A DNA stretch of 64,000 nucleotides from assembly GCA_018970465.1 (NCBI GenBank), contig JAGWWI010000002.1, forward strand, positions 4,517 to 68,516, written 5' to 3'. Made by a program: the position numbers and the translations under genes. Below the pieces are notes generated by a model that saw nothing but the letters and a program-made list of their open reading frames with translations, ran no database searches and was not told the origin of the DNA. The stretch is from Patescibacteria group bacterium. Lineage in GTDB: Bacteria; Patescibacteriota; Minisyncoccia; Phycocordibacterales; Phycocordibacteraceae. The stretch's first letter is position 1. The number at the start of each line of letters is the position of its first letter. Of the stretch, positions 4,100-56,244 are shown in pieces.

Positions 4100-4177
4100 T
4101 GGTCGGGGTGAGTGGATTTGAACCACTGACCCTCTGCCGATGGGACAGATGCTCTACCGGACTGAGCTACACCCACG
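4100..4177 (-). tRNA. tRNA with CAU anticodon (Met or Ile2 type); 3' CCA encoded; acceptor stem irregular
   Basis: Reverse complement: 'cgtgggtg ta gctc agtccggta gagc a tctgt cccatcg gcaga gggtc agtgg ttcaaat ccact caccccg a cca'. D, anticodon and T arms are canonical. The 5' acceptor strand has one extra nucleotide relative to the 3' strand. Confidence 0.6.
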
Positions 4178-4205: not shown

Positions 4206-4325
4206 GGTTCTGGCGGCTAGCTACTCTCCCCATCTGTAACGATGAGTACCATCGCCGCTAGGAGGCTTGACTGCCGAGTTCGGAATGAGATCGGGTATGA
4301 CCCTCCCGCCAAACCACCAGAACCG
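4206..4325 (-). rRNA. rrf: 5S rRNA
   Basis: The plus strand reads as the reverse complement of a 5S rRNA. It has complementary helix-I ends (ggttctggcgg ... ccaccagaacc), 'ccgatctcattccgaactcggcagtcaagc' (loop C) and 'gggagagtagctagccgccag'. Confidence 0.85.
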
Positions 4326-4695
4326 AACACTCGAAGTGTCGGCATACGAAACGCATAGGATAAGAATGTGTGAACAAATGATTGTGCTATACAGAGTTCC
4401 GCACGAGAGACTGGACATATTAGTACTCCTCGACTCCGCGCCTTACGGCGCTTCCATCTAGAGCCTATCAACGTGGTCATCTCCCACGAGTCTCATAACG
4501 ATTCCTAATCTTGGAGCACGTTTCCCGCTTATATGCTTTCAGCGGTTATCGCAACCCGACATAGCTACCCAGCGGTGCCCTTGGCAGGACAGCTGGTAGA
4601 CCAGAGGTCAGTTCATCCCGGTCCTCTCGTACTAGGGACGACCCTCCTCAAGAATCAACGCCTGTAGTAGATAGGAGACCAACCTGTCTCACGCA

Positions 4696-5003
4696 TCTAC
4701 GTTTGCTCGCATTACTGCGAGGATCGGACTGTAACACCACCCGATCTGGGTGACCAACATTCAGTCTCTAGAGGCGCCGAGATTTTTACTTCTCCGCTTC
4801 CTTCGGTGTTGCCCTCTCGTACACAACGAGTTCGGGTTCCACCGATATCAGTTGATTTGCTAACGTACGTATTCCTACGTACGACCGCCGTGAGTATGTC
4901 TTCGCACACTGCGTCTCCACGCAGCTAACAATTGCCTCGTGGATTCAGACCGTTCAATCACCGACACTCTGTCAGTTGCTGAACGGTCTGAACCCAGCTC
5001 GCG
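4696..5003 (-). mobile_element. ORF-less intron-like insertion (about 308 nt) in 23S domain V, near E. coli positions ~2593-2596
   Basis: Exon sequence 'gaccaacctgtctcacg' (4679-4695) and 'gtctgaacccagctcgcgtacc' (from about 5004) are contiguous in a normal 23S (GGGUUUAGAACGUCGUGAGACAG). About 308 nt lies between them. The insert ends in G before the 3' exon, as in group I introns. Class not established. Confidence 0.55.
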
Positions 5004-5714
5004 TACCTTTTTAATTGGCGAACAGCCAAACGCTTGGGAGCTTCTCCACCCCCGCGCTAAGGTGAGCCGACATCGAGGTGCCGAACTCCGCCGTCGCTAT
5101 GGACGCTTGGGCGGAACTAGCCTGTTATCCCCAGGGTAACTTTTATCCGTTGAGCTTCCTCCGCGTCTAAGGCGGAAGGTCGGATCACTATGCTCTGCTT
5201 TCGCATCTGCTCGGGATGTCCCCCTTGCAGTTAAGCCAGCTTATGCCATTACACTATCGGCACGGTTTCCATTCGCGCCTAGCTGACCTTAATAGGCTCC
5301 TCCGTTACTTTTTAGGAGGATAGCGCCCCACCAAAACTACCTGCCACGCACGGTCCCGATAGGGTTCCGCCCTACCGGTTAGGCACTGCCGGATGTAAGA
5401 GTGGTATTTCACTGACGAGTCCACGGCACCCAAGAGCGCCGCTTCAACCTCTCCCACCTATGCTACGCATACATCCCGCAGGGCCAATACGAAGCTGTAG
5501 TAAAGCTCCTGGGGTCTTTTCGTCTAACTACAGGTATCCGGCATCTTCACCGGAAGTGCATTTTCACCGAGCGAATCCTCGAGACAGCTGCCCAGTCATT
5601 ACGCCATTCGTGCACGTCGGAATTTACCCGACAAGGAATTGCGCTCAGGTATTCCTCGAACCTGGACCATATCTTCACCGCCGAAACGGGCACGACGTAT
5701 GGCCTCTCATGTGA

Positions 5715-6610
5715 GTCGTGTTTAGGATTAACCGGTACATTGCTATACCGGAAGGTAGCTTCGAATAGCGCAACCTATTTACCGACTATAATGGGTCCCA
5801 ATCCTCCCACGTTCGACTGTCGTCGAGCGTGAGACCTTAGGACGATTCACTTTGTTACTCTGCCGCGAAGCGGCAACTCTCACGATCGCCCGTGAGTTCG
5901 GACTATATCATCTGAGCTCTCGCCCAGTTCAGCGTGTAGTCTCTGAGGATTCCCAACCCCATCGCCAACGATATGCTCGATGGTATATTTGCGCTTCCTG
6001 CCGCGACCTTCGTTCAGAAGTTCGCGAAGTTGCGCTATCTCTTCGAGCCCTTGCCGTGTCAGATGCTTCTTCTGAAACACCTGGTGCGCGATGTCCTTGA
6101 AGAGTTTGAAGTTCTTCTTGGATTTAGCGGACAAGAATCCGAACCGCTCGAAGAACGGAATGATCCGCTCTTCTATGGATCGCGGATTCGCCACGACGTA
6201 GTACCAGACGCCATCGCGTCGCGCTTGCAGTCGACCGCACCCAAGGTGCTGCTTCATAAGCGCGAGCACGGTCTTGTCGCGTTGCGCGACATTGAACGTT
6301 AGTACCGTCTGCCACCCGATCGTATGATCAGGCCGCTGACGGAAGGAAACGTTGAAGCTCCCTTCTCCGTCTACGAATCCTGCGATGTACCACCCTATAT
6401 GGGGCGGTATGTCGTTGATGTTTTTCATGTTGGGTCTTTCCTGCGGATTGTCTGCACTCGCGCATTGTTACAGGGAGTCTTTCATCCCGAGTAGCGCGGA
6501 GTCCTAACCAGAGTTTCCCGCATTTAGCTGAATTTTATAACTACGATCGTCCATAGTTATCGCCGACATTCACCGGGGCATATACAGTCCAGCACATACC
6601 CGAAAGCATG
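5715..6610 (-). mobile_element. Intron (probable group I) in 23S domain IV, near E. coli positions ~1860-1880, carrying a LAGLIDADG ORF
   Basis: Exon matches resume at about 5617-5710 ('...acctggaccatatcttcaccgccgaaacgggcac' = region around E. coli 1880-1905) and at about 6615-6660 ('cttaacctaccggcatcggtcaggcgtcac' = around 1830-1850). About 0.9 kb of non-rRNA sequence lies between. Boundaries are approximate. Confidence 0.65.
5880..6428 (-). CDS. LAGLIDADG homing endonuclease (single-motif, I-CreI-like), intron-encoded
   Basis: 182 aa. 'IGWYIAGFVDGEGSFNVSF' is a LAGLIDADG motif. Same strand as, and inside, the 23S gene. Confidence 0.85.
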   Translation of the reverse strand: MKNINDIPPHIGWYIAGFVDGEGSFNVSFRQRPDHTIGWQTVLTFNVAQRDKTVLALMKQHLGCGRLQARRDGVWYYVVANPRSIEERIIPFFERFGFLSAKSKKNFKLFKDIAHQVFQKKHLTRQGLEEIAQLRELLNEGRGRKRKYTIEHIVGDGVGNPQRLHAELGESSDDIVRTHGRS

Positions 6611-8687
6611 TACCGCCCGTACTTAACCTACCGGCATCGGTCAGGCGTCACCCCCTATACTTCCTCTTACGAGTTCGCAGGGAGCTGTGTTTTTGGTAAA
6701 CAGTTGCCAGGCAATCTTTCGCTGCGGCCCCGCCGCCCTTGCGGGCGAAGGGGCAGGCCTTATCGCGAACTTACGGCCGCTTGTTTGCCGAGTTCCTTGA
6801 GGATCTCTCACTCGTTCGTCTTGGGCTACTCGCCCTGACCACCTGTGTCGGTTTGCGGTACGGTCGTTCGCAAGTTGAATGCTAGGAGGTTTTCTTGGAA
6901 CCGCGCTCGCTGCCCTCTCTCCCCCCGTAGGAGGAAATTGCGTCGCGGCTCGCGCTAGTGCGTGGCGGATTTGCCTACCACGCGCGCTCACCGCGCCGAC
7001 CCAAATCCAATAATGGGCGGCAGCTACAGCAGTCCGTCACTCCTTCGCCTTACGAACGGTCACGGAATATTGACCGTGTGTCCATCGGGTGCGGCTCTCG
7101 CCATCCCCTTAGGCCCGACTAACCCGGAGATGATCACCATAGCTCCGGAAACCTTGGTCTTTCGACGTGCGGGGTTCTCACCCGCATTGTGGTTACTTGT
7201 ACCTGCATTCTCACTTCTGAACGCTCCACCGCGGGTCACCCCTGCGGCTTCATCGCGAACAGAACGCTCTCCTACCGCTTGCCGCGTACACGTACGCGGC
7301 AAACCCGCAGTTTCGGCACGACGCTTAACCCCGATCATCTTCGGCGCACGGACTCTCGACGAGTGAGCTGTTACGCTTTCTTTGAATGGTGGCTGCTTCT
7401 AAGCCAACATCCTCGCTGTCAGTGAATCCGCACTTCCTTGTGATGTACTGAGCGTCGATTTTGGGGCCTTAACTGGCGATCTAGGCTCTTCCCTTCTCGA
7501 TCGATGGAGCTTCGCCCCCACCTTCTAACTGCCGCCCGAGCAGCGGGTATTCGGAGTTTGATAGGGACCACGAGATTTCTCCCTGTTGGCCCCTTCCAGT
7601 GCTCTACCCCCCACTGCGCATATGGCGACGCCAGCCCAAAAGCTGTTTCGGAGAGAACCAGCTATTCCCAGGTTCGATTAGCTTTTCACTCCTTACCACA
7701 AGTCATCCCAACGCGTTGTACGACGAACGGGTTCGGGCCTCCAGCTGCCTTTCGGCAACCTTCACCCTGCTCATGGCAAGCTCACCTGGCTTCGGGTCGT
7801 ATCGACGCCGCAGACGCGCTATTAACGCTCGCTTTCGCTTAGCCTCCGGGGCGTAACCCCTTAGACACGCGACGTAGATACACTCGCAGGCTCATTCTTC
7901 AATAGGCACGCCGTCACCCTCCCTTGCGGGAACGGGCTCCGACCCTTTGTAAGTGCACGGTTTCAGTTCTATTTCACTCCCCTCTCGGGGTGCTTTTCAC
8001 CTTTCCCTCACGGTACTAGTTCGCTATCGGTCATAGAGCGTATGTAGCCTTACCGGTTAGTTCCGGCAGATTCATTCGAGCTATTCATGTCTCGAACTAC
8101 TCAAGAATATGGACAAAAGAGTCGTCAGCATTTCGCCTACGGGGCCATTACCCTCTGGGGCGCTGCTTCCCAGCAGCTTCGGCTATGATGACGATTGGTA
8201 ACTCTTCTCTAGCAAGCTAGACGTCCATACCTTACAACCCCGTCCTCCGAAGAGTACGGTTTGGGCTTCTCCCTTTTCGCTCGCCGCTACTTGGGGAATG
8301 ACGTGGAATGGGTCTCCATACGCACAAGCATGTGCGCACGGAGACACATTCCTATTGTTCTCTTTTCCTCCGGGTACTGAGATGTTTCACTTCCCCGGGT
8401 TCGCTTCTCGTGGACATGACTCCACGGATCTCTACTAGAAGTAGAGGGGTTTCCCCATTCGGACATCTCCGGATCACAGGCTAATAGCCGCCTCCCCGAA
8501 GCTTATCGCAGGCTAATCACGTCCTTCATCGCCGCTCTAGGCCAAGGCATCCACCGTGCACCCTTCATGCTCCCGTACGGAAGCCTGAATACCACAATCG
8601 TTTTTGCACTTTGACCTCCCTCATTTCTGAGGGAATTTCAATTACCTTTCGTATTCGTGTATCAAAGAGCCCGTGCCCTCTAACGAA

Positions 8688-8709
8688 CGAACCGCCCCGA
8701 GGGGCGGTT
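8688..8709 (-). terminator. Rho-independent terminator downstream of paralog A (hairpin gaaccgcccc-gagg-ggcggttc)
   Basis: Perfect 9-bp stem with a GAGG loop, then a T-rich tract on the minus strand. Lies between the 8851..9513 gene and the 23S 5' region. Confidence 0.55.
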
Positions 8710-8850
8710 CGTTCGTCACGAACGCGTGGCCTAGCGGCCTCCCCCCGAAATCAGGTTTTTGGTGTTCGTAGACACGTAGAAGGGAGTGTACAGGAGGGGC
8801 GAAAGCGCGTCAACTAGGACCGTACTCTAGCCTTATCGGAGCCCTGGGGC

Positions 8851-9513
8851 CTATTGGACAACGATGCTTTTGGTAGCGATTACCTGATCTCCGCTCAGCA
8901 CCTTCAATACGTATGTGTTAGGGGAGAAGTAGCGATGGCTCGTAGCAACGTCCCCTTCCGTCATAACGGGAAAGGGATCGCGCGGAGATCTGTCTCCGTA
9001 ATCGACCGAGAGCGTACTGCCGCTGCCTCTGACCTCAAACCAGATGCTCTCACCCACGAGGAGAGGCGAGGATGTTGCGACGTCAATCGACGCTTCCGTG
9101 ATCCCGCCCGAAACCGTAACGGTCGCAGGAGAACCAACACCGATGCTCGGCGGCGGGATACAGTCCCCGTACGCAGGAGCCTGACACTCCCAAGCTTTGG
9201 ACCAGGTCATGCCAGCCTGAAATGTTCCAGAAATGCGATACGTGTGCCGGGCGTGTATAGAACACATGAATAAGAAACAGGTCGAAGACGCGACCGCATC
9301 GATGCTTCCGTCTCCAAAGTACGCTCGGTAGGTCCCGCCACGCGAGGCCAGCGCCAGGGTCGAGAGGCGCACCTCAAGAGGCGCGCTGCCGCGAACGGGC
9401 GTAGCAACATCCATTCGCCCCGTCCGCCACCACATGCCACCTGCGAGCGCAGCGAGCGCGAGAACGACGAGGCCGATCAGGATGAGCGAGGCGAAGCCGC
9501 GAGCAGAGCGCAT
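8851..9513 (-). CDS. Anchored or secreted hypothetical protein, tandem paralog A
   Basis: 220 aa. N-terminus 'MRSARGFASLILIGLVVLALAAL' (basic, then G-F, then about 20 hydrophobic residues). Shares this N-terminus with the next gene. Confidence 0.7.
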   Translation of the reverse strand: MRSARGFASLILIGLVVLALAALAGGMWWRTGRMDVATPVRGSAPLEVRLSTLALASRGGTYRAYFGDGSIDAVASSTCFLFMCSIHARHTYRISGTFQAGMTWSKAWECQAPAYGDCIPPPSIGVGSPATVTVSGGITEASIDVATSSPLLVGESIWFEVRGSGSTLSVDYGDRSPRDPFPVMTEGDVATSHRYFSPNTYVLKVLSGDQVIATKSIVVQ

Positions 9514-9516
9514 GAG

Positions 9517-10668
9517 TTAGTTGGTGAAGCGGAAGGATTGGATGATCGGCTCGAGCTTCGCATTTATATACGCTTGCCCGGCATCTCCGTTAACCGTTGC
9601 GTGCGCGAGTATACCGCTATATTGGAACATGAATATATCGAGCTGATAACAAAGGCCGTTCCGTACCGTCGCGTACGTGCTATTACCGACGTCTCCGTAG
9701 GGAATGCTCGTTTGCGTAAAGGCAATATCATTTATGGTAGTTGCTGCGGTGCCAAGGGTTTTGGTACAGCCGTTCTCTCCCTGCAACTTGTCCAATGGAA
9801 CGACCGATGCAAGCAAATATCCCTCGAGATTATCGGCGCCATCCACGACGTTGAAGTATGCCTCCGGAGGATTCTCGATGGTGGGCACCGAACCATACCC
9901 GGTAGTCTGCGCCGGCACGTCAGACGGATACTGGAGGCTGAACCCGTACTGCGCGTTAGCGTAGGTCTCGAGGCCGCTCACTACTGGACCCGTTCCGGCT
10001 GCCTTGCATGTAGAATCATACGTGCGAGTCGAGCCGTCGACCGAGACGGACAGGTTCGAGGACGACAACTTCGCGGTAGCCGGATCGGCTCCGAGAATGA
10101 CGGAACCGTTGCAATAGACGTTGTGCCTGTCCTTGGCATAAGGCGAGAAGTCGAGGTTCGGATTGAGCTCGACGAAGCTCGCGGCGTCGCCACTGACGAC
10201 AGGCGAAGAATCGACGAACGCGGAGTTTTCGTCCGCACTGAAGGAAAACTTCGTGATCCCGGTATCGTTACGGAAGAAAAGGACGGGCCCTGGTTTGGCG
10301 TACCACAGGAGAGAAAAGGTCGCCGGATCGGCACCCGCTATGACTACGCCGCCTCGATATACGTGACTCTTGTCTTTCCCGAAGCACAGGCCATAGATTG
10401 TGAGGTCTTGAAAGGTCGCCGCATCCGCCCCGGCGACCTTCTGGTATGCGCCGGAGCGGGGTTGAGTATCCATATAAATGGCGTCGCCATTTTTGTAGTA
10501 ACAACCGCTATCGGGCCCTACGCGCGCCGGGTCCACCGCAACGAAAGACCCGGCAGGCTCTCCGTTATTTCTGGCCGCCCGCCATGCCCTGCCCCCTGCG
10601 AATGCAACGACGACTAACACGGCCAGGCCGATCAGGACGAGCGAAGCGAACCCGCGAGCAGAGCGCAT
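9517..10668 (-). CDS. Anchored or secreted hypothetical protein, tandem paralog B
   Basis: 383 aa. N-terminus 'MRSARGFASLVLIGLAVLVVVAF'. C-terminal module '...YANAQYGFSLQYPSD...LEPIIQSFRFTN', shared with paralog C. Confidence 0.75.
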   Translation of the reverse strand: MRSARGFASLVLIGLAVLVVVAFAGGRAWRAARNNGEPAGSFVAVDPARVGPDSGCYYKNGDAIYMDTQPRSGAYQKVAGADAATFQDLTIYGLCFGKDKSHVYRGGVVIAGADPATFSLLWYAKPGPVLFFRNDTGITKFSFSADENSAFVDSSPVVSGDAASFVELNPNLDFSPYAKDRHNVYCNGSVILGADPATAKLSSSNLSVSVDGSTRTYDSTCKAAGTGPVVSGLETYANAQYGFSLQYPSDVPAQTTGYGSVPTIENPPEAYFNVVDGADNLEGYLLASVVPLDKLQGENGCTKTLGTAATTINDIAFTQTSIPYGDVGNSTYATVRNGLCYQLDIFMFQYSGILAHATVNGDAGQAYINAKLEPIIQSFRFTN

Positions 10669-10671
10669 GAG

Positions 10672-11688
10672 TTAGTTGGTGAAGCGGAAGGACTGGGCGA
10701 TCTGGTCAAGCTTGCCGAGAAGTACGGCTTCGGTGGCAGCCGACCAGCGTGGGTCAGTGCAACCACTATTTACGCATGCGCTCGGGAAACTGGTCAGGGC
10801 GATATCGTAACAATATCCGTTATGAACGGTTTTATATTCGCGCATGATGCCCTCCGCACTCACGCCTGCCTCATATCTGCTCTCGTCGAACTTGTTGAAG
10901 GTCATGCCGCCGATAGTCACCTGCGGCGTGCCGACGGGCCCTCCCAGACATTCGCCGGGTCCTGATTCGACCGTAACCGTTAAGTACCCCTCGGTTTGCA
11001 CTTGGTCCGTTCGGAGCTGGACAGAGACTACCGGATCGATGGCGAAAGGTTTGGAGGCGAAGGCCGAGGTGGCGAGCAGCGCGTCGGGTGGATACTCGAA
11101 GCTGAATCCGTACTGCGCGTTGGTATAGGTCTGCGTCTTTGTGGCACCTGCGACCGTGAGCGTTGCGCTCGTCTCTGTGTTATTAGGCCCGAACACATTG
11201 AGCGGATATGAGCCAGGCGGAAGCGTCCTGAAGTACGGACCGTCTACGAAAGAGACGGACCATCGCGCACCAGCCTGCACACTCGTGTCCGCGCTACCCG
11301 CGAGCTCGGTGCCACCTACGCTTTTGATCTGCACGTTGATGTCTCCCGACACCAAGGCCGTCCCGCTTATGGTTGGGTTCCCTGATGCTGACGTAAGCGA
11401 ACTCTGGTCGATAGCCACGCTCGGTCCTGCCGCTGATGATGGCGCCGTAGTCGTCTGATTGTTTGGAGCCGTTGTTGCGGTTGCGTTGGAGGTACTGGTC
11501 GCAACAGCGTCGGTATGGGTTGGCAGAGTAGCTTGTCGGGTGCCGTACCACCCCGCCCCAATCGCGGCGAGCGCGAGAACGACGAGGCCGATCACGATAA
11601 GCGAGGCGAAGCCCTGTGCGGGGATGCGGGACAGGCCGCGAGCGAGGGTATGCATATGCATCGATGATAGCACCCGAGCAAGCTTCAT
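10672..11688 (-). CDS. Anchored or secreted hypothetical protein, tandem paralog C
   Basis: 338 aa. '...IPAQGFASLIVIGLVVLALAAI', a Thr-rich linker 'TSTSNATATTAPNNQTTTAPSS', and C-terminal '...YTNAQYGFSFEYPPD...LDQIAQSFRFTN'. The start may be one of the internal Met residues (MHMHTL...). Confidence 0.7.
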   Translation of the reverse strand: MKLARVLSSMHMHTLARGLSRIPAQGFASLIVIGLVVLALAAIGAGWYGTRQATLPTHTDAVATSTSNATATTAPNNQTTTAPSSAAGPSVAIDQSSLTSASGNPTISGTALVSGDINVQIKSVGGTELAGSADTSVQAGARWSVSFVDGPYFRTLPPGSYPLNVFGPNNTETSATLTVAGATKTQTYTNAQYGFSFEYPPDALLATSAFASKPFAIDPVVSVQLRTDQVQTEGYLTVTVESGPGECLGGPVGTPQVTIGGMTFNKFDESRYEAGVSAEGIMREYKTVHNGYCYDIALTSFPSACVNSGCTDPRWSAATEAVLLGKLDQIAQSFRFTN

Positions 11689-11853
11689 AAGTCCCCTGGT
11701 TTAAGTCCTGTGTGTTTCGCGATCCCCTCCGCTTTCGCGCGAGCTCCCTGCTTCGTCTTGCCGTAAGCAAGTGCTCCGGGCATGCCTGCGACCTCCGCAA
11801 TCCAGAGCCCATCAACCTCGCGGTCGAAAACAACTTCCGCTGCCCGCACAGCC

Positions 11854-12078
11854 TTACGCATTGCTACGCGTGAGAGTGAAGGGGAGGGCTATGGGCTTGC
11901 GCGTATCACGCAGGCGCCGAGAAGCGTTGAGGAGCGTGAAGCCGCGCACGTGCTTAGTTCTTGGCGCGACCCGCAACAGCACGTCATTGCCCGCCTCCAC
12001 GGTTTGATCTGAAGCGCGGGGAGCGCCCTCAGAAAAGTAGAAGACATCTGCTTCTTTATCGTAAAAATAGTTGACCAT
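11854..12078 (-). CDS. DUF2283-like small protein (candidate antitoxin)
   Basis: 'MVNYFYDKEADVFYFSEGAPR...VRGFTLLNASRRL' matches the YDxExDxLYI pattern of DUF2283. ORF track 11854..12168. The start was trimmed to the internal Met to avoid overlap with the upstream gene. Confidence 0.55.
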   Translation of the reverse strand: MVNYFYDKEADVFYFSEGAPRASDQTVEAGNDVLLRVAPRTKHVRGFTLLNASRRLRDTRKPIALPFTLTRSNA

Positions 12079-12091
12079 GTTTGTATCCAGA

Positions 12092-12370
12092 TTAGAGGCT
12101 TTTAGGCTTCTTCGCAACATAGGCAGTGAGGACGAAGGGATTTCGGCCAGTTTTGAGTACAACCGCAAGGTACTTTCTTGAACGCGGGAGCAATCCGTAA
12201 CAGATGACCACTGTCTGATCGCTGACAGACCGGGTAATCACTTCGGGCTCTGCAAGCACGGATGCGAAATGCTTGAGGTATCGACTAACATCCGGATGGA
12301 AGGCCAGGATGTGGGCCTTCCGCTCCTCCGTGAACATGACGGCCCCGAACGGCGAGCTGAACCGTTGCAT
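12092..12370 (-). CDS. DUF4258-like small protein (candidate toxin)
   Basis: 92 aa, immediately upstream of the DUF2283-like gene on the same strand. Family assignment is from pattern memory only ('...YLAVVLKTGRNPFVLTAYVAKKP'). Confidence 0.45.
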   Translation of the reverse strand: MQRFSSPFGAVMFTEERKAHILAFHPDVSRYLKHFASVLAEPEVITRSVSDQTVVICYGLLPRSRKYLAVVLKTGRNPFVLTAYVAKKPKSL

Positions 12371-12438
12371 AATGGTAGTCTATCAAACCGAAAGGCCGGG
12401 TGAACCCGGCCTTTCGCGCGCGAACCGAAGGAGGCGAG

Positions 12439-13131
12439 CTACTCCCCGATATCGCGCTGGAGATGCTCGAGGTAGCGCGCGGCGGCGCCCTGGCCGCCGA
12501 GGCCGAAGGCGAGGCCGACTGCGAGCGCGACCGCGATCACGATACCCGTGAAGAGGGTCTGGATAAGCCCCGGCGCGACCTGGAGCTGGTCGAGGGCAGC
12601 GAGGATCGCGAAGACCCAGATCGCGTAGCGCGCGACCTTGCCGAGGAAGCCCGCGGCGTGGATGCGCGCGGCCTTCGCCGACCCGGCGACGACGCTCTCG
12701 GCCGCCTGCGCGACAACCGCCGCGACGAGGAGGATCAGGACCGCGACGATTACCTGCGGGAGGTACCCGAGGACGACATCGCTCAAGAAGACGTTCACCG
12801 TCTGGAGGTGGAGGAGGTCCAAGGCCGCGACCAAGAAGACGATGATGAAGAACCACTCGACGAGCCGGCCGAGGAAGCGGCCCGAAGAGAGGTTGAAGCC
12901 CGCCCGCGAGACGACGCGGTCGACGCCCGCCTGGCGCAAGGCCTGGTCGACCCGGAGCGAGTTGATCACCTGCTCGACGATCCGGCCGAGGCCGGCGCCG
13001 ATGATCCACCCGACGATGAAGATGATAATCGCTACGATCAGATTGGGGATGAAGGCGACCAGTCCGTAGAAGAGGCTCTGGAAGGACTGGTTCAACACAT
13101 CGGCCCACGTCGTGAACACCATTGATGGCAT
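12439..13131 (-). CDS. Polytopic membrane protein (mechanosensitive channel-like, conserved TM-helix family)
   Basis: 230 aa with several hydrophobic helices. The antisense ORFs 12383..13108 and 12400..13125 are Arg/Glu-rich artefacts. Confidence 0.55.
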   Translation of the reverse strand: MPSMVFTTWADVLNQSFQSLFYGLVAFIPNLIVAIIIFIVGWIIGAGLGRIVEQVINSLRVDQALRQAGVDRVVSRAGFNLSSGRFLGRLVEWFFIIVFLVAALDLLHLQTVNVFLSDVVLGYLPQVIVAVLILLVAAVVAQAAESVVAGSAKAARIHAAGFLGKVARYAIWVFAILAALDQLQVAPGLIQTLFTGIVIAVALAVGLAFGLGGQGAAARYLEHLQRDIGE

Positions 13132-13224
13132 GATCCCGGTAATAATTAGCGGCTAAGACGCTCTAAGAGCGGCTATGCTCCAGTCTAGCAAGCCTCGCCT
13201 CCCCCGCCGGGAGGGCTGTGGATA

Positions 13225-13800
13225 CTAGGGCGTGAGGCCGATCCGGTCTACGAGGAGCCGATGCGGGTAGTCGAACACGTCGCGCAGGAGGCGATCGTAG
13301 ACGCCGAGCCGGTAGCGGAACTCCGGCGTCTCGAATACCGCGTAGCGGATCTCCCGGCCAAGCTCGGCCTCGAGGGTGCGCACCGCCTTCGCGATCGCGC
13401 GCAGGTCGAGGTTGTCGCCCGCGACGAGGAGGTCGACGCGCGTCTCGACCGCGCCCGTGAAGAGCCCCGAGAGCGCGACGACGCGCAAGGTCCCTGCCTT
13501 GCGCAGCGCGGCGAGGATGTACTCGGGCCGGAGGATGGTGGTGTCGCGGATAAACGCCTCGAGCGCGGCGAGGTGCTCGTAGCGCGCGTTCGCCTGGTAC
13601 TTGGCGAGAGCACGGTCACCGCGCTTCGCGACCACGCCCGCCTCGCGCAAGGCGGCGAGCTCGCGCCGGACGACCGTCCCGTCGAGCGAGCTCCGGCGCG
13701 CCGCGTCCGCGAGCGTGAACGAGGTGCCCTGGTTAAAGACGAAGAGCCGCAGGAGCTTCACGCGCGCGAGGGAGCCGAAGAGCCTGCCGAGTCGATCCAT
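13225..13800 (-). CDS. Winged-helix transcriptional regulator
   Basis: 191 aa. N-terminal 'VKLLRLFVFNQGTSFTLADAARRSSLDGTVVRRELAALREAGVVAKRG' resembles an HTH of the ArsR/MarR type. Confidence 0.55.
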   Translation of the reverse strand: MDRLGRLFGSLARVKLLRLFVFNQGTSFTLADAARRSSLDGTVVRRELAALREAGVVAKRGDRALAKYQANARYEHLAALEAFIRDTTILRPEYILAALRKAGTLRVVALSGLFTGAVETRVDLLVAGDNLDLRAIAKAVRTLEAELGREIRYAVFETPEFRYRLGVYDRLLRDVFDYPHRLLVDRIGLTP

Positions 13801-21965: not shown

Positions 21966-22001
21966 TAGACTGAAAGTACGTAAACAATAAACAGCTCGCG
22001 T

Positions 22002-22826
22002 ATGTACTGTAGCAACTGCGGAAGAAAAAATGACCCTGACGCGAATTTTTGTGAAAAATGCGGCGCGGCTCTTACCAAGGAATCCGTTCCTGTCCTCCGA
22101 GAGTCTGCTCCGGTTACGAGCACCGCTCCCTCGACTCAATCGGAACCTGTCGCCGCACCTCCGACGGGAAAAGGTGTCATTAAGTGCGGCAATTGCGGGT
22201 ACATCGGCCCAGGCGAACCGGCACGGAGCCTGTGGGCGAAAATTCTTGCGTGGATATGCGTGATCTTTGCTCCGCTCATCACTATCCTCTACTTCGTCGC
22301 GACCCACAAATATCGCTGTCCGAAGTGCCACTCCACGTTTCTAGGAATACGAAACAAGAACGGGGAATTCATCCAAGGCCAGAACGGCGTTAGCAGAGCC
22401 GTTACCATAATCATTCTCGTGTTCGTCGGATTATTTGTTATCGGTGTTCTGGCTGCAGTGGTGCTGGCTTCGCTCAACACAGCCCGTGCGAAAAGCAGGG
22501 ACGCCGCTATCGAATCTCGTCTGGACAGTATCCGTGCGGAAGCGGAAGTGTACTATGGGGGCGCCGGCGATAACAGCTACGGGAACGGGACCGACTCTTG
22601 CGCGGACGGCATGTTTGCCGCCGATGCGACCATCGCAAGCGAGTTGCAAGACATTTCGAGCCTCAATCCAAACGGCGAGATGTCGTGCGCCGTTTCAACC
22701 GACGGGAGCGCCTATGCTCTACAAGCGCAGCTCACCTCTGACTCGGGCACGTATTGGTGTGTCGACTCGGCTGGCCTATCTAAAGAAGAGACTTCTTCGT
22801 TGGGGGCGGGCACACGTTGTCCGTAG
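22002..22826 (+). CDS. Zinc-ribbon, TM, then type IV pilin-like ectodomain protein
   Basis: N-terminal 'MYCSNCGRKNDPDANFCEKCGA' (double Cys pair). A second Cys pair 'KCGNCG...RCPKCHS' flanks a TM helix. Then 'VIGVLAAVVLASLNTARAKSRDAAIESRLDSIRAEAEVYYGG' resembles a mature pilin alpha-helix, and a C-terminal region carries 4 Cys. Region of lower G+C. Confidence 0.65.
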   Translation: MYCSNCGRKNDPDANFCEKCGAALTKESVPVLRESAPVTSTAPSTQSEPVAAPPTGKGVIKCGNCGYIGPGEPARSLWAKILAWICVIFAPLITILYFVATHKYRCPKCHSTFLGIRNKNGEFIQGQNGVSRAVTIIILVFVGLFVIGVLAAVVLASLNTARAKSRDAAIESRLDSIRAEAEVYYGGAGDNSYGNGTDSCADGMFAADATIASELQDISSLNPNGEMSCAVSTDGSAYALQAQLTSDSGTYWCVDSAGLSKEETSSLGAGTRCP

Positions 22827-22843
22827 GCAAACCTCCACCTCGT

Positions 22844-24529
22844 ATGTACTGCAAAATATGCGGACATAGAATTGAGCGGGGTAAAAAGTTTTGTAAAAAT
22901 TGTGGCTCATCAGTCCCGAGCAGCTTTTTCACCGCCCTATTAGGCGCGGTGCCCCTTGGCACCGCGCGTCGCCTGGACATGCGCAACCCTTGGATCTGGC
23001 TCGGGATAGGGGTGGCTACCGCAAGCTTCGGTGCCATACTCCTTGTATGGCCTCTGCATCCGCACGGGAAAAGTCCGACTGTCATCGTTCCCCAGAATCA
23101 ATTGGCTGTGGTCGATATAAACTGCGATACAGGATACGGCGGGTCGGGAACCGTCTTCACGAGTGACGGCACCATATTGACGAACAACCATGTCATTCAG
23201 GGAGCAAAGGAGTGCGAAGTCACCATCCCGGACCCTGCGACGGGACAGATCAGTAAGATTTATAAAGCGGTCCCTAGTATCGTCCCGAAGCTCAGCAAGA
23301 AGTATGATGTTGCGACCTTAAAGATCGATGCCGCATACACCGATAAGAACGGGAAGACGTGGGGGACCTACCCCGCTACGTTTACGGCATTCGTTTCTCC
23401 CAGCACTTGCGATCCCACTCAACCTTCAAAGCTCGGTGACTCTGTTCGCATTTACGGCTATCCCGTCACGAGCGGCGGCTACAATCTGACTGTCACGGAC
23501 GGCCTCTTGAGCAGCTTTTCTGATAATGGATATATCCTAACTTCTGCAAAAGTAGACAGCGGCAATTCCGGAGGTCTGGCTGTCGATCAAGACGGCTGCT
23601 GGCTGGGGATACCCTCGGCAGTTGAAGCGGGGAATTATCAAAATCTAGGAGTGATTATCCCGGGAGAAGTTGTCGCCGCAAACTTCCTGAATGCCGTTGC
23701 CGCCAAGGCAGACCCCGCAGCAATTAAGTCGCCCTTGCGCGCAGCTAACGCTGAATCCGCTGCAACCCCTCAGCTATCTAACGATCAGATATGCCAAAGC
23801 GGCTTTGGCCAAAATAGTGAATGGTCTGGGCAATTGGACAGTAGCGGCAAACCAACCTGCAGATGTAAAGACGGATATTCATGGGATGCAAGCGGTAATG
23901 CGTGCGCGCTTCAATCTGACCTGGAACAGTGGTGCGAAAGTAACTATGGCACTGGTAGTTATTCGTCCCCCCAGAACGGCAAGGCTACTTGTGGCTGTGA
24001 CACAGGGTACACTTGGAACGCGGGCCAGACAGCATGCGTTCCGCAAGAGACGAATGACGAACAGTGCCAGGCCGATTATGGAATCGGGAGCTACTGGACT
24101 GGCACAACTAATGCCCAAGGAGGCCCAACATGTGGCTGCCAATCGGGCTATGTTTGGAACACCGCTCAAACTGAGTGTGTCGCGCAGCCGAGTTGCCCTT
24201 TATACTCAAGTTATGACGCCTCTGCCGGACAATGCGAATGTTGGTCTGGCTATGTAACCACTGCGACGGGTTGCGAATCGGCCTTGACGTACTGCGAAAA
24301 TAAGGAGGGTTTTGGAGCCACTTATGATGCGGCCACGAATTCGTGCGAATGCGAGCCTGGCTATATGTTTGACGGGAGCACGTGCCAGTCAGGATATTCG
24401 TACTGCTCTGCACGATGGGGCGTAGGGGCTGAATATGATTACAATACAAATGGGTGCGCCTGTGGATATGGATACACGGTCAACAGCTCGGGTACCGGGT
24501 GCCAATCCATATACTCAACGTATTACTAA
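22844..24529 (+). CDS. Zinc-ribbon, TM, then trypsin-like serine protease with C-terminal Cys-rich repeats
   Basis: 'MYCKICGHRIERGKKFCKNCG' plus a TM helix. Protease triad context 'TNNHVIQG', 'DVATLKID', 'DSGNSGGLAV'. Six or more repeats of about 21 aa of the type 'PTCxCxxGYxWNxxxxxCVxQ'. ORF track start 22817; the Met at 22844 is preferred. Confidence 0.8.
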   Translation: MYCKICGHRIERGKKFCKNCGSSVPSSFFTALLGAVPLGTARRLDMRNPWIWLGIGVATASFGAILLVWPLHPHGKSPTVIVPQNQLAVVDINCDTGYGGSGTVFTSDGTILTNNHVIQGAKECEVTIPDPATGQISKIYKAVPSIVPKLSKKYDVATLKIDAAYTDKNGKTWGTYPATFTAFVSPSTCDPTQPSKLGDSVRIYGYPVTSGGYNLTVTDGLLSSFSDNGYILTSAKVDSGNSGGLAVDQDGCWLGIPSAVEAGNYQNLGVIIPGEVVAANFLNAVAAKADPAAIKSPLRAANAESAATPQLSNDQICQSGFGQNSEWSGQLDSSGKPTCRCKDGYSWDASGNACALQSDLEQWCESNYGTGSYSSPQNGKATCGCDTGYTWNAGQTACVPQETNDEQCQADYGIGSYWTGTTNAQGGPTCGCQSGYVWNTAQTECVAQPSCPLYSSYDASAGQCECWSGYVTTATGCESALTYCENKEGFGATYDAATNSCECEPGYMFDGSTCQSGYSYCSARWGVGAEYDYNTNGCACGYGYTVNSSGTGCQSIYSTYY

Positions 24530-25185
24530 AATCTGCTGCCGCGCTTGAAGCGCGAAAGTGCGGCGCGTATGATGGGAGCGTGAATGAGGCGATCGCGGAG
24601 GTGGCGGCGGACGAGACCCGGGGTCTCCCGGGTCTCGTCGCGTTCGCTCCTGATGAGCTTGTCGAGTACCTTGGGCTCGTCAACTACGCGACCTCGGAGC
24701 GCGTGCTCAAAGAGATCGAGGATCGACTCCAGGCGAGCCCCGCCGCGCCCATACGCATGGTGGTCACCTCGGCGGGCGGGCCGTCGGGGACGGCGATGGG
24801 CTTCTACGACACCGTCCGCACGATCCTGCGCCCCGCTGCCCTGACGACGATCGGCGCGGGCGATGTCGACTCCTCGGGCATCCTCCTCTTACTCACCGGC
24901 TCGACGCGGCTCGTGACGGCGCACACGACCGGGCTCCTGCACCTCGCGGGGCGCTACTTCGACCCCAACACCCGCTACACCGCCCGCGACCTCCGCACCA
25001 TGGCGGCCGAGGATGAGGCGAAGGACCGGCAGTATGCGGCGATCGTCGCCGCCAATACGAGCGGCCGACTCTCCGCGACCGGCGTGCTCCGGATGATGCG
25101 GCGGGAGACGCTCCTCGCGCCGACAGACTTCGTGCGCTACGGCCTCGCGCACGCGGTCGTCGACGAAGGATCATTCCCGAATTAA
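24454..25185 (+). CDS. ClpP-like (S14/crotonase-fold) serine protease; start uncertain
   Basis: 'PIRMVVTSAGGPSGTAMGFYDTVRTILRPAALTTIGAGDVDSSGILLLLTGSTRLVTAHTTGLLH' parallels the ClpP 'INSPGG...GLAIYDTM...'. The ORF's 5' end overlaps the upstream gene, so a GTG near 24571 is the likely true start. Confidence 0.6.
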   Translation: MRLWIWIHGQQLGYRVPIHILNVLLKSAAALEARKCGAYDGSVNEAIAEVAADETRGLPGLVAFAPDELVEYLGLVNYATSERVLKEIEDRLQASPAAPIRMVVTSAGGPSGTAMGFYDTVRTILRPAALTTIGAGDVDSSGILLLLTGSTRLVTAHTTGLLHLAGRYFDPNTRYTARDLRTMAAEDEAKDRQYAAIVAANTSGRLSATGVLRMMRRETLLAPTDFVRYGLAHAVVDEGSFPN

Positions 25186-25269
25186 CGCGCCGCTCATCCG
25201 CTCTCCGCTATCCTCTCGGCCACGGCCGAAGGTCGAGGCCGGCTTACGAGAGGCGTAACGAGAGCACGT

Positions 25270-25446
25270 ATGGCACGCAACATTGGCGGCCGCGGCTTCG
25301 CGGGCATGCCGGAGGAACGGCAGCGCGAGATCGCATCCGAGGGCGGCAAGGCCGCGCATCGCGCAGGCACCGCCCACGAGTTCGACTCCGAGAGCGCCCG
25401 CGCAGCAGGCAGGAAGGGCGGCCGGGCGCGGCACGCGAATCGCTAA
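25270..25446 (+). CDS. Small KGG-repeat stress-induced protein (YciG-like)
   Basis: 58-aa ORF 'MARNIGGRGFAGMPEERQREIASEGGKAAHRAGTAHEFDSESARAAGRKGGRARHANR'. The GGRGFA...EEQREIASKGGKA pattern matches KGG-motif proteins. Below the ORF-track size cutoff. Confidence 0.5.
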   Translation: MARNIGGRGFAGMPEERQREIASEGGKAAHRAGTAHEFDSESARAAGRKGGRARHANR

Positions 25447-28352: not shown

Positions 28353-29201
28353 CTAGCCGCGCGGCGACGCGGCCAGCCCGAAGAGGCGCGTGGCGTTCGC
28401 GACCGTAGCTTGGCGGACGGTCTCGAGGGGCTCGTTGCGGATCTCGGCGAGCTTCGCGACGACGTCTTCGACGGCCAGAGGGTCGTTGCGCGCCCCGCGT
28501 CCGCGCGAGGTCGGCGGGACATAGGGCGCGTCGGTCTCGGCGAGGAGGGACGCGAGCGGCGCGGCGCCGATGGCGGCGTCGTACTCGCGAGCGAAGGTGA
28601 CGACCGCCGTGTAGGAGACGGTCAAGCCGAGCGCGACCAAGGCGCGCATCTCCTCCTCGCCCCCGACGAAGAAGTGGATATCGCCGCGGAGGTTCGGATA
28701 CTGCTCCTTCTCCTCCGTGAGGATCGCGATGAGGTCGTGATATGCGTCGCGCGTCTTCTTCGACGGCCGCGCGTGGATGATCAAGGCCTTATCGAGCTCG
28801 GCGGCAAGCGCGATCTGGGAGCGCAGTAGGGTTTTCTGCTTCTCCTTCACCTCCTCGTTCACCTCTTCAGGACGAAAATAGTCCAAGCCGCACTCCCCTA
28901 TCGCAACGACCTTTCCGCCGGAGGCGGATCCGCCTCCGGCGGACGCGCTCGCGGCGAGCGCGCGATATGCCGCCGGGTCGAAGGCCTCCTCTGATTCATG
29001 ATTGGGGTGGAGACCGATCGCCGCGTAGAGATGCTCGTGGCGCTCGGCGAGCGCGACCGCCGCCTGCGAGCTCACGTAGTCGCAGCCGACGACCACCCCG
29101 GCGACCCCGCGCTCCTCCATCCGCGCAATCACCTCCTCGCGATCCTCAGCAAAGGCCGGGAACTGCAGGTGGCAGTGCGCGTCGAAATACTTGGTCGTCA
29201 T
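28353..29201 (-). CDS. tatD: TatD-family metal-dependent hydrolase/DNase carrying a GGGSASGG insert
   Basis: 'KYFDAHCHLQF', 'IGLHPNH', 'VVAIGECGLDYF', 'LIIHAR', 'GDIHFFVGG', 'LLAETDAPYVPP'. Confidence 0.85.
   Translation of the reverse strand: MTTKYFDAHCHLQFPAFAEDREEVIARMEERGVAGVVVGCDYVSSQAAVALAERHEHLYAAIGLHPNHESEEAFDPAAYRALAASASAGGGSASGGKVVAIGECGLDYFRPEEVNEEVKEKQKTLLRSQIALAAELDKALIIHARPSKKTRDAYHDLIAILTEEKEQYPNLRGDIHFFVGGEEEMRALVALGLTVSYTAVVTFAREYDAAIGAAPLASLLAETDAPYVPPTSRGRGARNDPLAVEDVVAKLAEIRNEPLETVRQATVANATRLFGLAASPRG
28915..28942. repeat. 28-bp perfect palindrome ccgccggaggcggatccgcctccggcgg (copy 1, inside tatD)
   Basis: Self-complementary and centred on GGATCC. Translated in frame (minus) as GGGSASGG within TatD. 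Confidence 0.9.
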
Positions 29202-29740
29202 ACTGACGCGAGCTGGTCGAAGCGCGCTTTCTTGAAGCGATAGAAACCGATTGTTCTGATCGAGCCGTCGGCGAGCGTAACGAGCATGGTGTCGACGCGA
29301 TCGAACAATACCGGAGGGAAGTCACGATGGTTCTGTGTGGCAAGGAACAGTTCTGCCACGGTTGATGCGGTCCGCGCATATTTGCTCAACTGCGCAGCGA
29401 TCAACGTATCTGCAACGCTTGAACTCTTATTGTCTGCATTCAGATATATGCGGGCGATTGTAAGCGCCCGATCAAAAATGTCCTTATCGGGAGCAAGAAC
29501 GAGATGGTCCGTGCCGCACAATGCCGTGAGGAACTCCTCTGCCGCCCGAAGCTCTTCCGGACCGCGCTTCAGACCACGAAGAAATTCGAGCCGAATGGTA
29601 CTCTCAATAACCGGAACGATTTCGAGCCGCCGTAATTCCGCATAGAGCACACTAAACTCTTCAGGGAACTTGGACGAATCGATGAGAACGTTCGTATCGA
29701 GTAATACAAAGCTATGCTCTGGTATCGACAGGCGCTCCAT
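29198..29740 (-). CDS. PIN-domain ribonuclease (VapC-like toxin)
   Basis: 'MERLSIPEHSFVLLDTNVLIDSS...ADTLIAAQL...LATQNHRDF', with acidic residues at PIN positions. ORF track start 29794 is a non-ATG codon; the ATG at 29740 is preferred. Region of lower G+C. Confidence 0.75.
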   Translation of the reverse strand: MERLSIPEHSFVLLDTNVLIDSSKFPEEFSVLYAELRRLEIVPVIESTIRLEFLRGLKRGPEELRAAEEFLTALCGTDHLVLAPDKDIFDRALTIARIYLNADNKSSSVADTLIAAQLSKYARTASTVAELFLATQNHRDFPPVLFDRVDTMLVTLADGSIRTIGFYRFKKARFDQLASV

Positions 29741-29849
29741 TGACTCTCTCGTCGCGCTCGCGTTCCCGAATGCCTTCGCCAACTCGTTTTGCAAGCGCGA
29801 TTATTCGCTCGTTCCACGAGTAGGTTGATTTGGCTGCGTGAGTGCTCAT
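29712..29849 (-). CDS. Candidate small antitoxin upstream of, and overlapping, the PIN gene
   Basis: 45-aa ORF 'MSTHAAKSTYSWNERIIALAKRVGEGIRERERDERVNGAPVDTRA', below the ORF-track cutoff. A TATACT is about 10 nt upstream. No family recognised. Confidence 0.3.
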   Translation of the reverse strand: MSTHAAKSTYSWNERIIALAKRVGEGIRERERDERVNGAPVDTRA

Positions 29850-47568: not shown

Positions 47569-48432
47569 TCACCCAGAGGGCGAGGGAGCGTCGAGGAGTA
47601 CTCTGATGATCTGAACGCCGTTCGCTTGGAACGCCGGTGCGCCATCGACTAGTGAATACCCCTCTGAGTAGAAGAGGTGCTTGATGCCCGTCTCTGCCCA
47701 TTCATAGGCGCACGGTGGACACGGGAAGGTCTGTACATATAGATCACAACCCTCAGTACAGATGCCAGCCCTCAACGCGGCAGCTGCCACCGACCGTTCA
47801 GCATGAGCAGAGGCGGAGAGTTCTATCTGCTCTCCCGGCCCGAACTGGCTGCGAGGATCGCCGTATACGTAGCAGCTTTGTTCGGCCGGGACGTGGCGGT
47901 TGTATGCCCGGACCAAGACAGTGCCGTCGCGCACGAGAAGCGCGCCGATCTGCCGCCACCAGTCGGGACTCCGACCGCCCTCGTAGATAGCTGCCCGCAT
48001 GAGCCGACGATCAAGCTCGTCGGCAGATACGACCTCTTCCCCATCCGGACGGCGCCCGACGGCCACGCTGTCCTTATACCAGCGCAGACGCCAACGCCCG
48101 TCGAAGACAACCGGAACGTCGGCGAGATACATCTCCGCAACCGTGCGAGACACATCCTCATCCGGCATGACGATACGGTACGCTCGGGCGACTTCCCACA
48201 GTTCGCCGCGCGATACCACCCTCACCGTACGGAAGATTGCGAGAGCGGCGATCATCCGCACCGCATCCGCCGGACGATTGCCAGGCAGATGCTTCGTGAG
48301 CGACGAGAACTCGGCGATCAGCTCGTCGTCGAATACGTAGAGGCATGCGCCTTCGTACTGACGAAAGAACTGCAGATACCCTTCGTGCGGTGAAGCGACA
48401 TAGGCGACGACAGCGGTATCAGGCGAGTTCAC
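47569..48432 (-). CDS. dCMP/cytidine-deaminase-fold protein with an unrecognised N-terminal domain of about 150 aa
   Basis: C-terminal 'SASAHAERSVAAAALRAGI...YVQTFPCPPCAYEWAETGIKHLFY' (H-A-E...P-C-x-x-C zinc site). The N-terminal half has no recognisable motif. Confidence 0.7.
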   Translation of the reverse strand: MNSPDTAVVAYVASPHEGYLQFFRQYEGACLYVFDDELIAEFSSLTKHLPGNRPADAVRMIAALAIFRTVRVVSRGELWEVARAYRIVMPDEDVSRTVAEMYLADVPVVFDGRWRLRWYKDSVAVGRRPDGEEVVSADELDRRLMRAAIYEGGRSPDWWRQIGALLVRDGTVLVRAYNRHVPAEQSCYVYGDPRSQFGPGEQIELSASAHAERSVAAAALRAGICTEGCDLYVQTFPCPPCAYEWAETGIKHLFYSEGYSLVDGAPAFQANGVQIIRVLLDAPSPSG

Positions 48433-55299: not shown

Positions 55300-55307
55300 A
55301 TCTTCAG

Positions 55308-56193: not shown

Positions 56194-56244
56194 TGTTACA
56201 CTTAGCGAATGTCTGACCGCGACCGCTTCCACAAGCTCCTCGGC

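Follow-up and report, generated by a model that had tools for sequence, protein, structure and literature searches.

The window analyzed here, a 64,000-nucleotide stretch of contig JAGWWI010000002.1 from a Patescibacteria group bacterium, is rich in G+C (about 65%), and downstream of recA it carries a sharply bounded block of lower G+C that consists of two genes, which we call g1 and g2. The first encodes a membrane protein of 274 residues and the second a membrane-tethered serine protease of 561 residues. On balance, we take this block to be a putative laterally acquired two-gene cassette of foreign composition, and we lean toward the view that its products form a laterally exchanged module for proteolysis or adhesion at the cell surface. 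The features on which the argument rests are the following.

21966–24545, no strand: low-G+C compositional island, made up of exactly g1, g2, and their short spacers
22002–22826, + strand: g1, open reading frame for a 274-residue membrane protein (zinc ribbon, LITAF-like ribbon, transmembrane helix of pilin alpha-1 type, pilin-type head)
22002–22076, + strand: g1 residues 1–25, N-terminal zinc ribbon with C3, C6, C17, and C20 (PF13240, E = 2.5e-8; PF12773, DZR, E = 6e-9)
22173–22355, + strand: g1 residues 58–118, probable LITAF-like zinc ribbon (KCGNC, 40 residues with a hydrophobic helix-break-helix, CPKC)
22386–22556, + strand: g1 residues 129–185, one 57-residue helix in the model, with a transmembrane part at ~133–158 and a continuation outside
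22557–22823, + strand: g1 residues 186–274, pilin-type head in the model, with two short helices, a four-stranded sheet, and Cys 200, 229, 253, and 273
22844–24529, + strand: g2, open reading frame with ATG at 22844 for a 561-residue serine protease that is tethered to the membrane and ends in a rod of Cys repeats
22844–22915, + strand: g2 residues 1–24, N-terminal zinc ribbon with C3, C6, C17, and C20 (PF13240, E = 2.6e-4; DZR, 1.4e-4; below gathering score)
22988–23056, + strand: g2 residues 49–71, single predicted transmembrane helix (model helix 49–68, hydropathy segment 49–71)
23096–23698, + strand: g2 residues 85–285, protease domain of DegS/HtrA type (S1C-like; Trypsin_2, E = 6.5e-16)
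23189–23191, 23306–23308, and 23567–23569, + strand: g2 triad residues H116, D155, and S242, invariant in 41 sequences
23774–24508, + strand: g2 residues 311–555, six tandem four-Cys EGF-like modules with first Cys at 317, 364, 408, 451, 484, and 521

The block is bordered by ftsK and recA on one side and on the other by a run of core genes, namely those for a ClpP-like protein, a KGG-repeat protein, a sigma factor, efp, S18, ssb, S6, tatD, and metG. In 150-nt segments, the G+C fraction drops from 0.59–0.65 to 0.47–0.61 at about position 21950 and is back to at least 0.65 from about 24550. At third codon positions the G+C fraction (GC3) is 0.615 in g1 and 0.555 in g2, compared with 0.83–0.92 in 12 flanking genes; this shift of about 0.3, together with the sharp edges, is the atypical composition by which genomic islands are recognized. 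The original prediction had described a low-G+C block of three genes that begins abruptly after recA. The abrupt fall stands, while the third gene, which encodes the ClpP-like protein, has a GC3 of 0.876 and lies outside the block. The closest g2 homologue (~57% identity over the full length) comes from a genome with 52% G+C and itself has a GC3 of 0.569, compared with 0.555 in g2, and family genes elsewhere have moderate or low G+C, as do the genomes that carry them (35–52%). The composition of the cassette therefore fits import from a genome of about 50% G+C followed by little amelioration, consistent with the horizontal acquisition that had been proposed for g1 and g2. The two genes are probably one transcription unit; a scan of the region for promoters and terminators gave counts no higher than in shuffled sequences. 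Their first eight nucleotides are identical (positions 22002–22009 in g1 and 22844–22851 in g2, ATGTACTG, encoding Met-Tyr-Cys), and a protein start of the form M-[FY]-C is kept across both families.

Both open reading frames proved real with the boundaries first drawn for them. NCBI labels g1 a 'zinc ribbon domain-containing protein' and nothing more. Homologue searches at E ≤ 0.001 returned 187 relatives of g1 and 185 of g2; where an organism is named, as it is for a few of them, it belongs to Patescibacteria or Paceibacterota. The AlphaFold2 model of g1 has a mean predicted local distance difference test score (pLDDT) of 81. At its N-terminus lies a predicted cytoplasmic zinc ribbon, which matches PF13240 and DZR significantly and whose Cys are nearly invariant in alignment A1. 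Such a ribbon had been read at the start of each protein, and in g2, where the profile matches stay below threshold, the reading is upheld by the invariance of C3, C6, C17, and C20 in 41 homologues.

The strongest conservation among 46 aligned relatives of g1 falls neither on the first ribbon nor on the C-terminus. Instead, it covers residues ~58–118, where 17 positions are invariant, among them C62, C65, C106, and C109, and where exactly 40 residues separate the two CxxC motifs of 110 out of 111 relatives. The stretch between these Cys pairs is hydrophobic (residues 75–103, with Pro91 at the helix break), and the model places strands at 59–70 and 114–117 and helices at 77–89 and 91–100. If the four invariant Cys form a single ribbon, they have to come together on the same face of the membrane, which would require the hydrophobic stretch to double back instead of crossing the bilayer; the model predicts a non-spanning helical hairpin. 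A second Cys pair around a transmembrane helix had been noted at this place; the Cys pair and the hydrophobic segment are there, and it is the membrane-spanning character that gives way to the predicted hairpin.

This arrangement resembles the LITAF domain, a zinc-stabilized monotopic membrane anchor (PMC5095921, PMC5142333) whose zinc content and topology were established by metal analysis and topology reporters (PMC5095921). The LITAF pattern of CxxC, a hydrophobic segment (by the criterion applied, of ~22 residues or more), and CPxC recurs in g1. When a profile of the g1 module was searched against 1.84 billion representatives, just 124 clusters were found, and the tail of the matches consisted of stand-alone proteins of 61–99 residues (E from 1e-6 to 1e-3), which hhalign joined to the g1 module family with 98.8% probability (E = 1e-16). 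PF10601 was listed for nine of ten of these stand-alone proteins and exceeded its cut-off in two (25.6 and 25.5 versus 23.8 bits). These comparisons suggest that residues 58–118 are probably a divergent prokaryotic branch of LITAF-like ribbons. With LITAF and CDIP1 (PF10601), g1 would share the CxxC, hydrophobic stretch, and CPxC, the strands that flank a segment predicted to fold back as a hairpin, and homology to small proteins at or near the PF10601 threshold. It differs from them in being prokaryotic, in continuing after the module into a true transmembrane helix and an ectodomain, and in belonging to a tiny family that has no direct Pfam match. The stand-alone family itself (P0314–P0337, alignment A6) is metagenomic, and its members read MxIKCPNCxYEG, a hydrophobic stretch, and CPKC.

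Downstream of this module, g1 forms a single long helix (residues 129–185) with its hydropathy maximum at 136–154. A g1-family profile (A4) compared with PDB sequences matched geopilin (E = 2.7e-8) and PilA (PDB 6xxd, 1.2e-7), and more weakly GspG (2.3e-3) and PilE (0.03). The alignment starts at residue 3 of the mature pilin and extends into the amphipathic half of alpha-1, and the same profile also matched a bona fide N_methyl pilin encoded in one of the family loci (L010). These alignments indicate homology between the helix and the alpha-1 of type IV pilins, counted from residue 3 of the mature form, and the segment that had been singled out as pilin-like reflects real homology. The head that follows carries the four Cys expected in the C-terminal region, three of which are invariant in A4, and its modeled strands (227–231, 238–243, 251–255, and 260–263) have pLDDT values of 83–96. 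With PilA, PilE, GspG, and PilX, g1 shares a homologous alpha-1 (E = 2.7e-8 to 2e-3); the likeness may extend to the head, where the model has a long helix packed on a four-stranded sheet, with Cys pairs.

A functional pilin, however, is not what this gene encodes. No prepilin-peptidase site of the form G[FMILV][TS][LI][ILV]E occurs in any of 120 g1 relatives, and the class III signal peptide (Gly-1, Phe/Met+1, Glu+5) by which type IV pilins and pseudopilins are recognized is missing from g1 and from these 120; the position of Glu5 is hydrophobic in g1. Unlike in pilins, the helix is preceded by about 125 cytoplasmic residues that include two zinc ribbons. Given these residues and the missing processing site, g1 is expected to stay tethered rather than to polymerize, and judged by its sequence it is a tethered pilin-derived protein for which canonical processing into a filament is not possible. 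Pfam searches of g1 gave no match to N_methyl (PF07963) or T2SSG, GspG in NCBIfam reached just E = 0.16, and no further pilin hidden Markov model matches were found within the window. Among relatives of g1, the anchor is constant and the part outside the membrane varies. About a third of them, at ~160 residues, consist of the anchor and alpha-1 helix alone and are headless, while others bear pilin-type heads, an FKBP-type prolyl isomerase (P0184, E = 6e-24), or Cys repeats of the kind found in g2; such EGF-like modules stand at the C-terminus of 8 of 120 relatives.

The start of g2 required correction in the public record. NCBI calls a protein of 473 residues that starts 88 codons downstream and leaves a gap of 282 bp (window and loci L015–L017); the call omits positions 22844–23107, and with them the zinc ribbon and the membrane anchor, both of which are kept in all homologues. 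Since homologues begin with M-[FY]-C and the zinc-ribbon Cys are conserved, the long form is correct. The AlphaFold2 model of the 561-residue protein has a mean pLDDT of 80. Three Lys or Arg residues occur in the 15 residues that precede the transmembrane helix and one follows it, a positive-inside bias from which the N-terminus is predicted to be inside. In both proteins, a zinc ribbon on the cytoplasmic side is predicted to be joined by a membrane helix to an outside domain rich in Cys and presumably disulfide-bonded, in line with the cytoplasmic zinc finger on an extracytoplasmic effector that had been proposed.

The trypsin-fold protease recognized in g2 by the original prediction is confirmed by the Trypsin_2 match and by H116, D155, and S242, and the TNNH and GNSGG motifs and four further Cys of the domain are likewise invariant. 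Foldseek compared the domain most closely with DegS, DegP, and HtrA (E ~1e-13, target-normalized TM-score up to 0.77), and proteases filled the list when the whole protein was searched. Judging from these residues and motifs, the protease appears active. It shares with the DegS/HtrA (S1C) proteases an N-terminal membrane anchor, a chymotrypsin-fold domain predicted to lie outside the cytoplasm, the His-Asp-Ser triad with its motifs, and the best structural matches. It departs from them in that a cytoplasmic zinc ribbon stands ahead of the anchor and in that the PDZ domain is absent: Pfam gave no PDZ match, and the C-terminal 250 residues are EGF-like repeats, with six four-Cys modules following a disordered linker (residues 291–309). 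It also scores far below the NCBIfam cut-offs for TIGR02037 (Do family, 53.6 versus 416 bits) and for DegS (29.2 versus 423), and, unlike those enzymes, it appears to be an accessory, laterally transferred protein encoded within clusters of zinc-ribbon genes.

The repeats had been described as at least six copies of an unusual motif of about 21 residues. Six C-x-C-x2-G-Y...C motifs are indeed present, and the unit turns out to be a four-Cys module of 27–38 residues with a period of 33–47 residues. The pattern C-x-C-x2-[GP]-[FYW]-x4-8-C, which we take to be the PROSITE EGF_2 pattern, is matched by all six repeats, whereas 0.027 matches are expected from shuffles of the region. A profile built from 60 repeats found EGF domains only among PDB sequences (E = 0.017–1.5), including those of fibrillin, factor X, factor IX, thrombomodulin, and the LDL receptor. 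Between 21 and 37 of 60 single repeats gave weak matches to cEGF, FXa_inhibition, or ADGRF3_N, with EGF_CA also among the sub-threshold matches; the best values per repeat were 6.3e-6 for cEGF and 3.7e-5 for FXa_inhibition, with listed bit scores below the cut-offs. On this sequence evidence, the repeats are a divergent four-Cys EGF-like module and not a new motif, so that one refuting outcome named by the original prediction, repeats that match a common domain such as EGF, is borne out in part. In the model, the modules have pLDDT values of 81–93 and are built of a helix and four strands each, except that module 4 lacks the helix. In common with cEGF, the second EGF domain of factor Xa, and fibrillin cbEGF, each repeat bears the signature and folds in the model into two beta-hairpins. 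The difference is that each unit has four Cys rather than six, in g2 and in 227 homologue repeats alike, that a helix at the N-terminus stands where EGF has its first loop, and that the context is bacterial (Patescibacteria). The number of repeats ranges from one to seven among the g2 homologues that have them, and at the DNA level no tandem repeat was found in this region of g2. A homologue search with the repeat region alone returned one match, a search limited by its word index.

The relatives show that the pairing of these two genes is not confined to the window. In nine independent loci, the window included, the protease gene always belongs to a row of two to six zinc-ribbon genes that share its strand. 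Five of these loci (the window, L001, L012, L013, and L014) have, upstream of the protease gene and on its strand, a g1-type gene that encodes the LITAF-like module. The co-occurrence of the two zinc-ribbon genes, which the original prediction had proposed to look for in other genomes, is thus found in four of them, and the immediate order g1-g2 recurs in L013. A scan of metagenomes added 12 family loci, nine of which have a zinc-ribbon neighbor within 3 kb. Overall, 18 of 21 family loci have a separate zinc-ribbon gene no more than 3 kb from the protease gene, compared with none of 68 control loci, which were those of more distant HtrA-like proteases.

Genes of mobile DNA accompany many of these clusters. 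Within 10 kb we found integrases, serine recombinases, Prim-Pol, ParB, or transposases in L001, L003, L009, L011, L014, L026, and L028, with Bro-N or Fic also among the nearby genes in the first five of these loci. In viral collections, a single distant relative of the protease and none of g1 turned up among IMG/VR contigs, and no BFVD structure matched significantly (E ≥ 0.017), which makes the carriers look like integrative islands rather than recognized phages. PHROGs returned only generic zinc-ribbon and protease similarity. Prophage cargo was considered as a candidate and is unsupported by the IMG/VR result. In two loci from different genomes, the island that holds the cluster (L003, 16031–19366; L011, 9012–13581) ends in a tyrosine integrase upstream of the same rpiB/rpe/transketolase run, directly adjacent to it in L003 and separated from it by ~1.4 kb and two genes in L011, which suggests that these two islands share an integration site. 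Close to the homologous cluster in L009 lies a bAvd gene, which encodes an accessory protein of diversity-generating retroelements (7903–8253), and the surroundings of the cluster in L010 encode an AcrVA2-like protein as well as a fusion of a true N_methyl pilin with Laminin_G_3 (12287–13453 and 8310–9554).

Taken together, these features would make the cassette part of a variable cluster of genes for membrane proteins with zinc-ribbon anchors, a cluster that moves among Patescibacteria on integrative islands. We infer the zinc binding, the disulfides, the catalytic activity, the topology, and the biological role of the two proteins as follows. Both would be membrane-tethered with the N-terminus inside and the C-terminus outside, the zinc ribbons lying in the cytoplasm and the outside domains being Cys-rich and disulfide-bonded. 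The hairpin of the second ribbon of g1 may sit in the inner leaflet, and the protein would then cross the membrane once, through a helix of type IV pilin ancestry, to present a disulfide-bonded pilin-type head outside while remaining tethered. The g2 product would be an active surface protease whose EGF-like rod, in place of a PDZ domain, reaches or binds substrates. Such a module might remodel surface proteins of its own cell or of the host cell at the episymbiont interface, as a trait that can be exchanged between lineages.

Several results weigh against this reading of the cassette or of its parts. At the locus, no integrase, att repeats, or tRNA was found at the cassette borders (21.5–25.6 kb of the window), and no empty site was found at the junction of recA and the ClpP-like gene, since every other assembly with this junction is 100% identical to the window. 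Direct-repeat candidates that flank the cassette were limited to short, imperfect two-copy matches, which we judged to be due to chance. A recombinase-type gene occurs in seven of ten family loci of at least 10 kb and in one of 27 controls, a contrast that is indicative only because the recombinase seeds were drawn from the family loci and so bias the comparison towards them. The g1 module has no direct PF10601 match even at E ≤ 1, and hhalign gave it a probability of 1% against the human LITAF domain (a query validated as PF10601, E = 5e-25); the stand-alone family reached only 16% against human LITAF, and the link between g1 and LITAF runs through these intermediate small proteins only. The top Foldseek matches of g1 in the PDB are pilins (PilX, PilV, and those of Shewanella and Thermus) but weak ones, with E ≥ 0.19, and for the g2 repeats no EGF-clan Pfam family reaches its gathering score. 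Finally, the FKBP foldase found on g1-anchor relatives suits housekeeping in folding and quality control as well as it suits interaction with other cells.

This last point leads to an alternative in which the two genes serve housekeeping quality control outside the cytoplasm, with g2 as the HtrA of this lineage and g1-type anchors as tethers for secretion factors, analogous to the HtrA/PrsA pair of Gram-positive bacteria. The kinship of the protease domain with DegS, DegP, and HtrA, the DegS-like N-terminal anchor, and the prolyl isomerase held outside the membrane by a g1-type anchor (P0184) would all be expected if this were so. We nevertheless consider it unlikely: g2 lacks the PDZ domain and falls far short of the Do-family score (53.6 versus 416 bits), the codon usage of both genes is foreign, their relatives reside in integrase and recombinase islands rather than in conserved core contexts, and both the repeat number and the partner genes differ between loci.

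Rather less likely still is that the genes are cargo of a mobile element that interferes with type IV pili, for example in superinfection exclusion or DNA-uptake exclusion, with g1 docking on or poisoning the assembly platform and g2 trimming pili or receptors. The g1 helix is homologous to pilin alpha-1 but has no processing site and is held fast by a cytoplasmic domain, the head is absent from about a third of g1 relatives, and the clusters lie in integrative islands, all of which is compatible with interference. PADLOC, however, returned no match for g1 and for g2 only protease-domain similarity to RT-Protease_XI (E = 1.2e-9), the IMG/VR and BFVD searches were as poor in relatives as described above, and no pilus or mobile-element genes adjoin the cassette in the window.

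A further alternative extends the module to three protease-related genes by adding the neighbor of g2, as the original prediction had done. This neighbor and the gene after it are as follows.

24580–25185, + strand: divergent ClpP-fold peptidase of 201 residues, a host gene outside the cassette (PF00574, E = 1.9e-12; GC3 0.876)
25270–25446, + strand: KGG-repeat stress-protein gene, a host gene and not part of the cassette (PF10685, E = 1.4e-11)

The ClpP-fold assignment of the neighbor is backed by its PF00574 match, whereas the start that had been given to it, at 24454, does not hold. That open reading frame of 243 residues overlaps g2 in its upstream part, and the gene starts instead with GTG at 24580 behind GGGAG, the NCBI call and the homologues being 201 residues as well. 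Its product resembles ClpP in exceeding the CLP_protease threshold (PF00574, 47.9 versus 20.2 bits) and in aligning its Ser and His with those of ClpP; it differs in falling far below all NCBIfam ClpP equivalog cut-offs, in having Glu at the position of the Asp, and in being paired with the KGG gene. The pair of ClpP-like gene (50–57% identical) and KGG gene recurs in three other genomes (L005–L007, labeled Adlerbacteria, Parcubacteria, and Saccharibacteria), where neither the cassette nor recA is nearby. Host-typical GC3, the later start, and this synteny without the cassette indicate that the block comprises two genes and not three.

The three genes are adjacent on the same strand, and the order recA-g1-g2-ClpP-KGG is retained in three other assemblies, as a three-gene module would have it. 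Those assemblies are all 100% identical to the window, however, and thus represent the same population, and none of the 20 other family loci has a ClpP neighbor. ClpP-fold proteases are cytoplasmic, in contrast to the protease domain of g2, which is predicted to lie outside. With the host-typical composition and the cassette-free pairs, this makes a three-gene module very improbable. A decaying or non-functional foreign insert, for which the atypical, unameliorated composition and the lack of remaining mobile-element machinery at the site might speak, is scarcely credible either, given that both open reading frames are intact, the models are confident, and none is missing of the triad residues, the eight Cys of the g1 zinc ribbons, or the 24 Cys of the g2 repeats, and given that the sampled population is fixed for the cassette.

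We thus continue to favor a surface proteolysis or adhesion module exchanged between lineages. All of its folds are known, and it is their combinations that appear undescribed, namely a pilin head on a zinc-ribbon and LITAF-like anchor, and an HtrA-type protease in which EGF-like modules replace the PDZ domain; in the literature we found no description of either domain architecture. Public annotation misses both, the label of g1 being generic and the call of g2 cutting off the anchor. Patescibacteria spend their lives attached to other cells, a lifestyle of which the surface and pilus proteins are the least understood aspect. Genes of the g1 and g2 families move on integrative islands from one lineage to another, which makes them candidates for transferable traits of host interaction or exclusion.

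A more far-reaching possibility, which we regard as speculative and fairly improbable, is that g1-type proteins are a new class of 'anchored pilins' that engage the pilus machinery or contacts unpolymerized, held by a LITAF-like zinc-stabilized monotopic anchor. Together with g2 they might then form an exchangeable kit that reprograms pilus function or host attachment, or that excludes competing mobile DNA, and as a corollary the eukaryotic LITAF anchor would have bacterial relatives. Confirmation of the LITAF-like link would thus connect bacteria to an anchor otherwise studied in eukaryotes, and interest in the cassette would rise with that confirmation or if the anchored pilin acts on type IV pili.

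About one quarter of the window has an atypical composition. A PIN-domain gene (29198–29794, − strand) with a GC3 of 0.60, possibly a toxin gene and a second small insertion of foreign appearance, stands between tatD and metG, whose GC3 is ~0.87–0.89. A low-G+C patch at 54949–57645 (45–55% G+C) contains an IS1595/ISXO2-type transposase gene (56249–57070, − strand, E = 1e-35) adjoined by a tRNA-Leu (55307–55391), as well as unannotated open reading frames such as that at 55612–56193 (GC3 0.47). The presence of a transposase gene and a PIN-domain gene in other patches of low GC3 in the window supports the view that low GC3 marks accessory DNA. Genes of intermediate GC3 (0.62–0.68) lie at 8851–12168 (− strand), where they include those for a PKD-like protein and a DKNYY-family protein (9517–10668), and at 47569–48432 (− strand), which encodes a protein with a cytidine/MafB19-like deaminase domain.

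The window also carries ribosomal RNA genes, among which there is no 16S rRNA gene. The 23S rRNA gene (4400–8577, − strand) measures 4178 nt, compared with a model of 2925 positions, and is followed by a 5S rRNA gene (4208–4321) and a tRNA-Met (4100–4176). Inside the 23S rRNA gene lies an open reading frame for a LAGLIDADG endonuclease (5880–6428, − strand, E = 1e-16), presumably an intron-encoded homing endonuclease.

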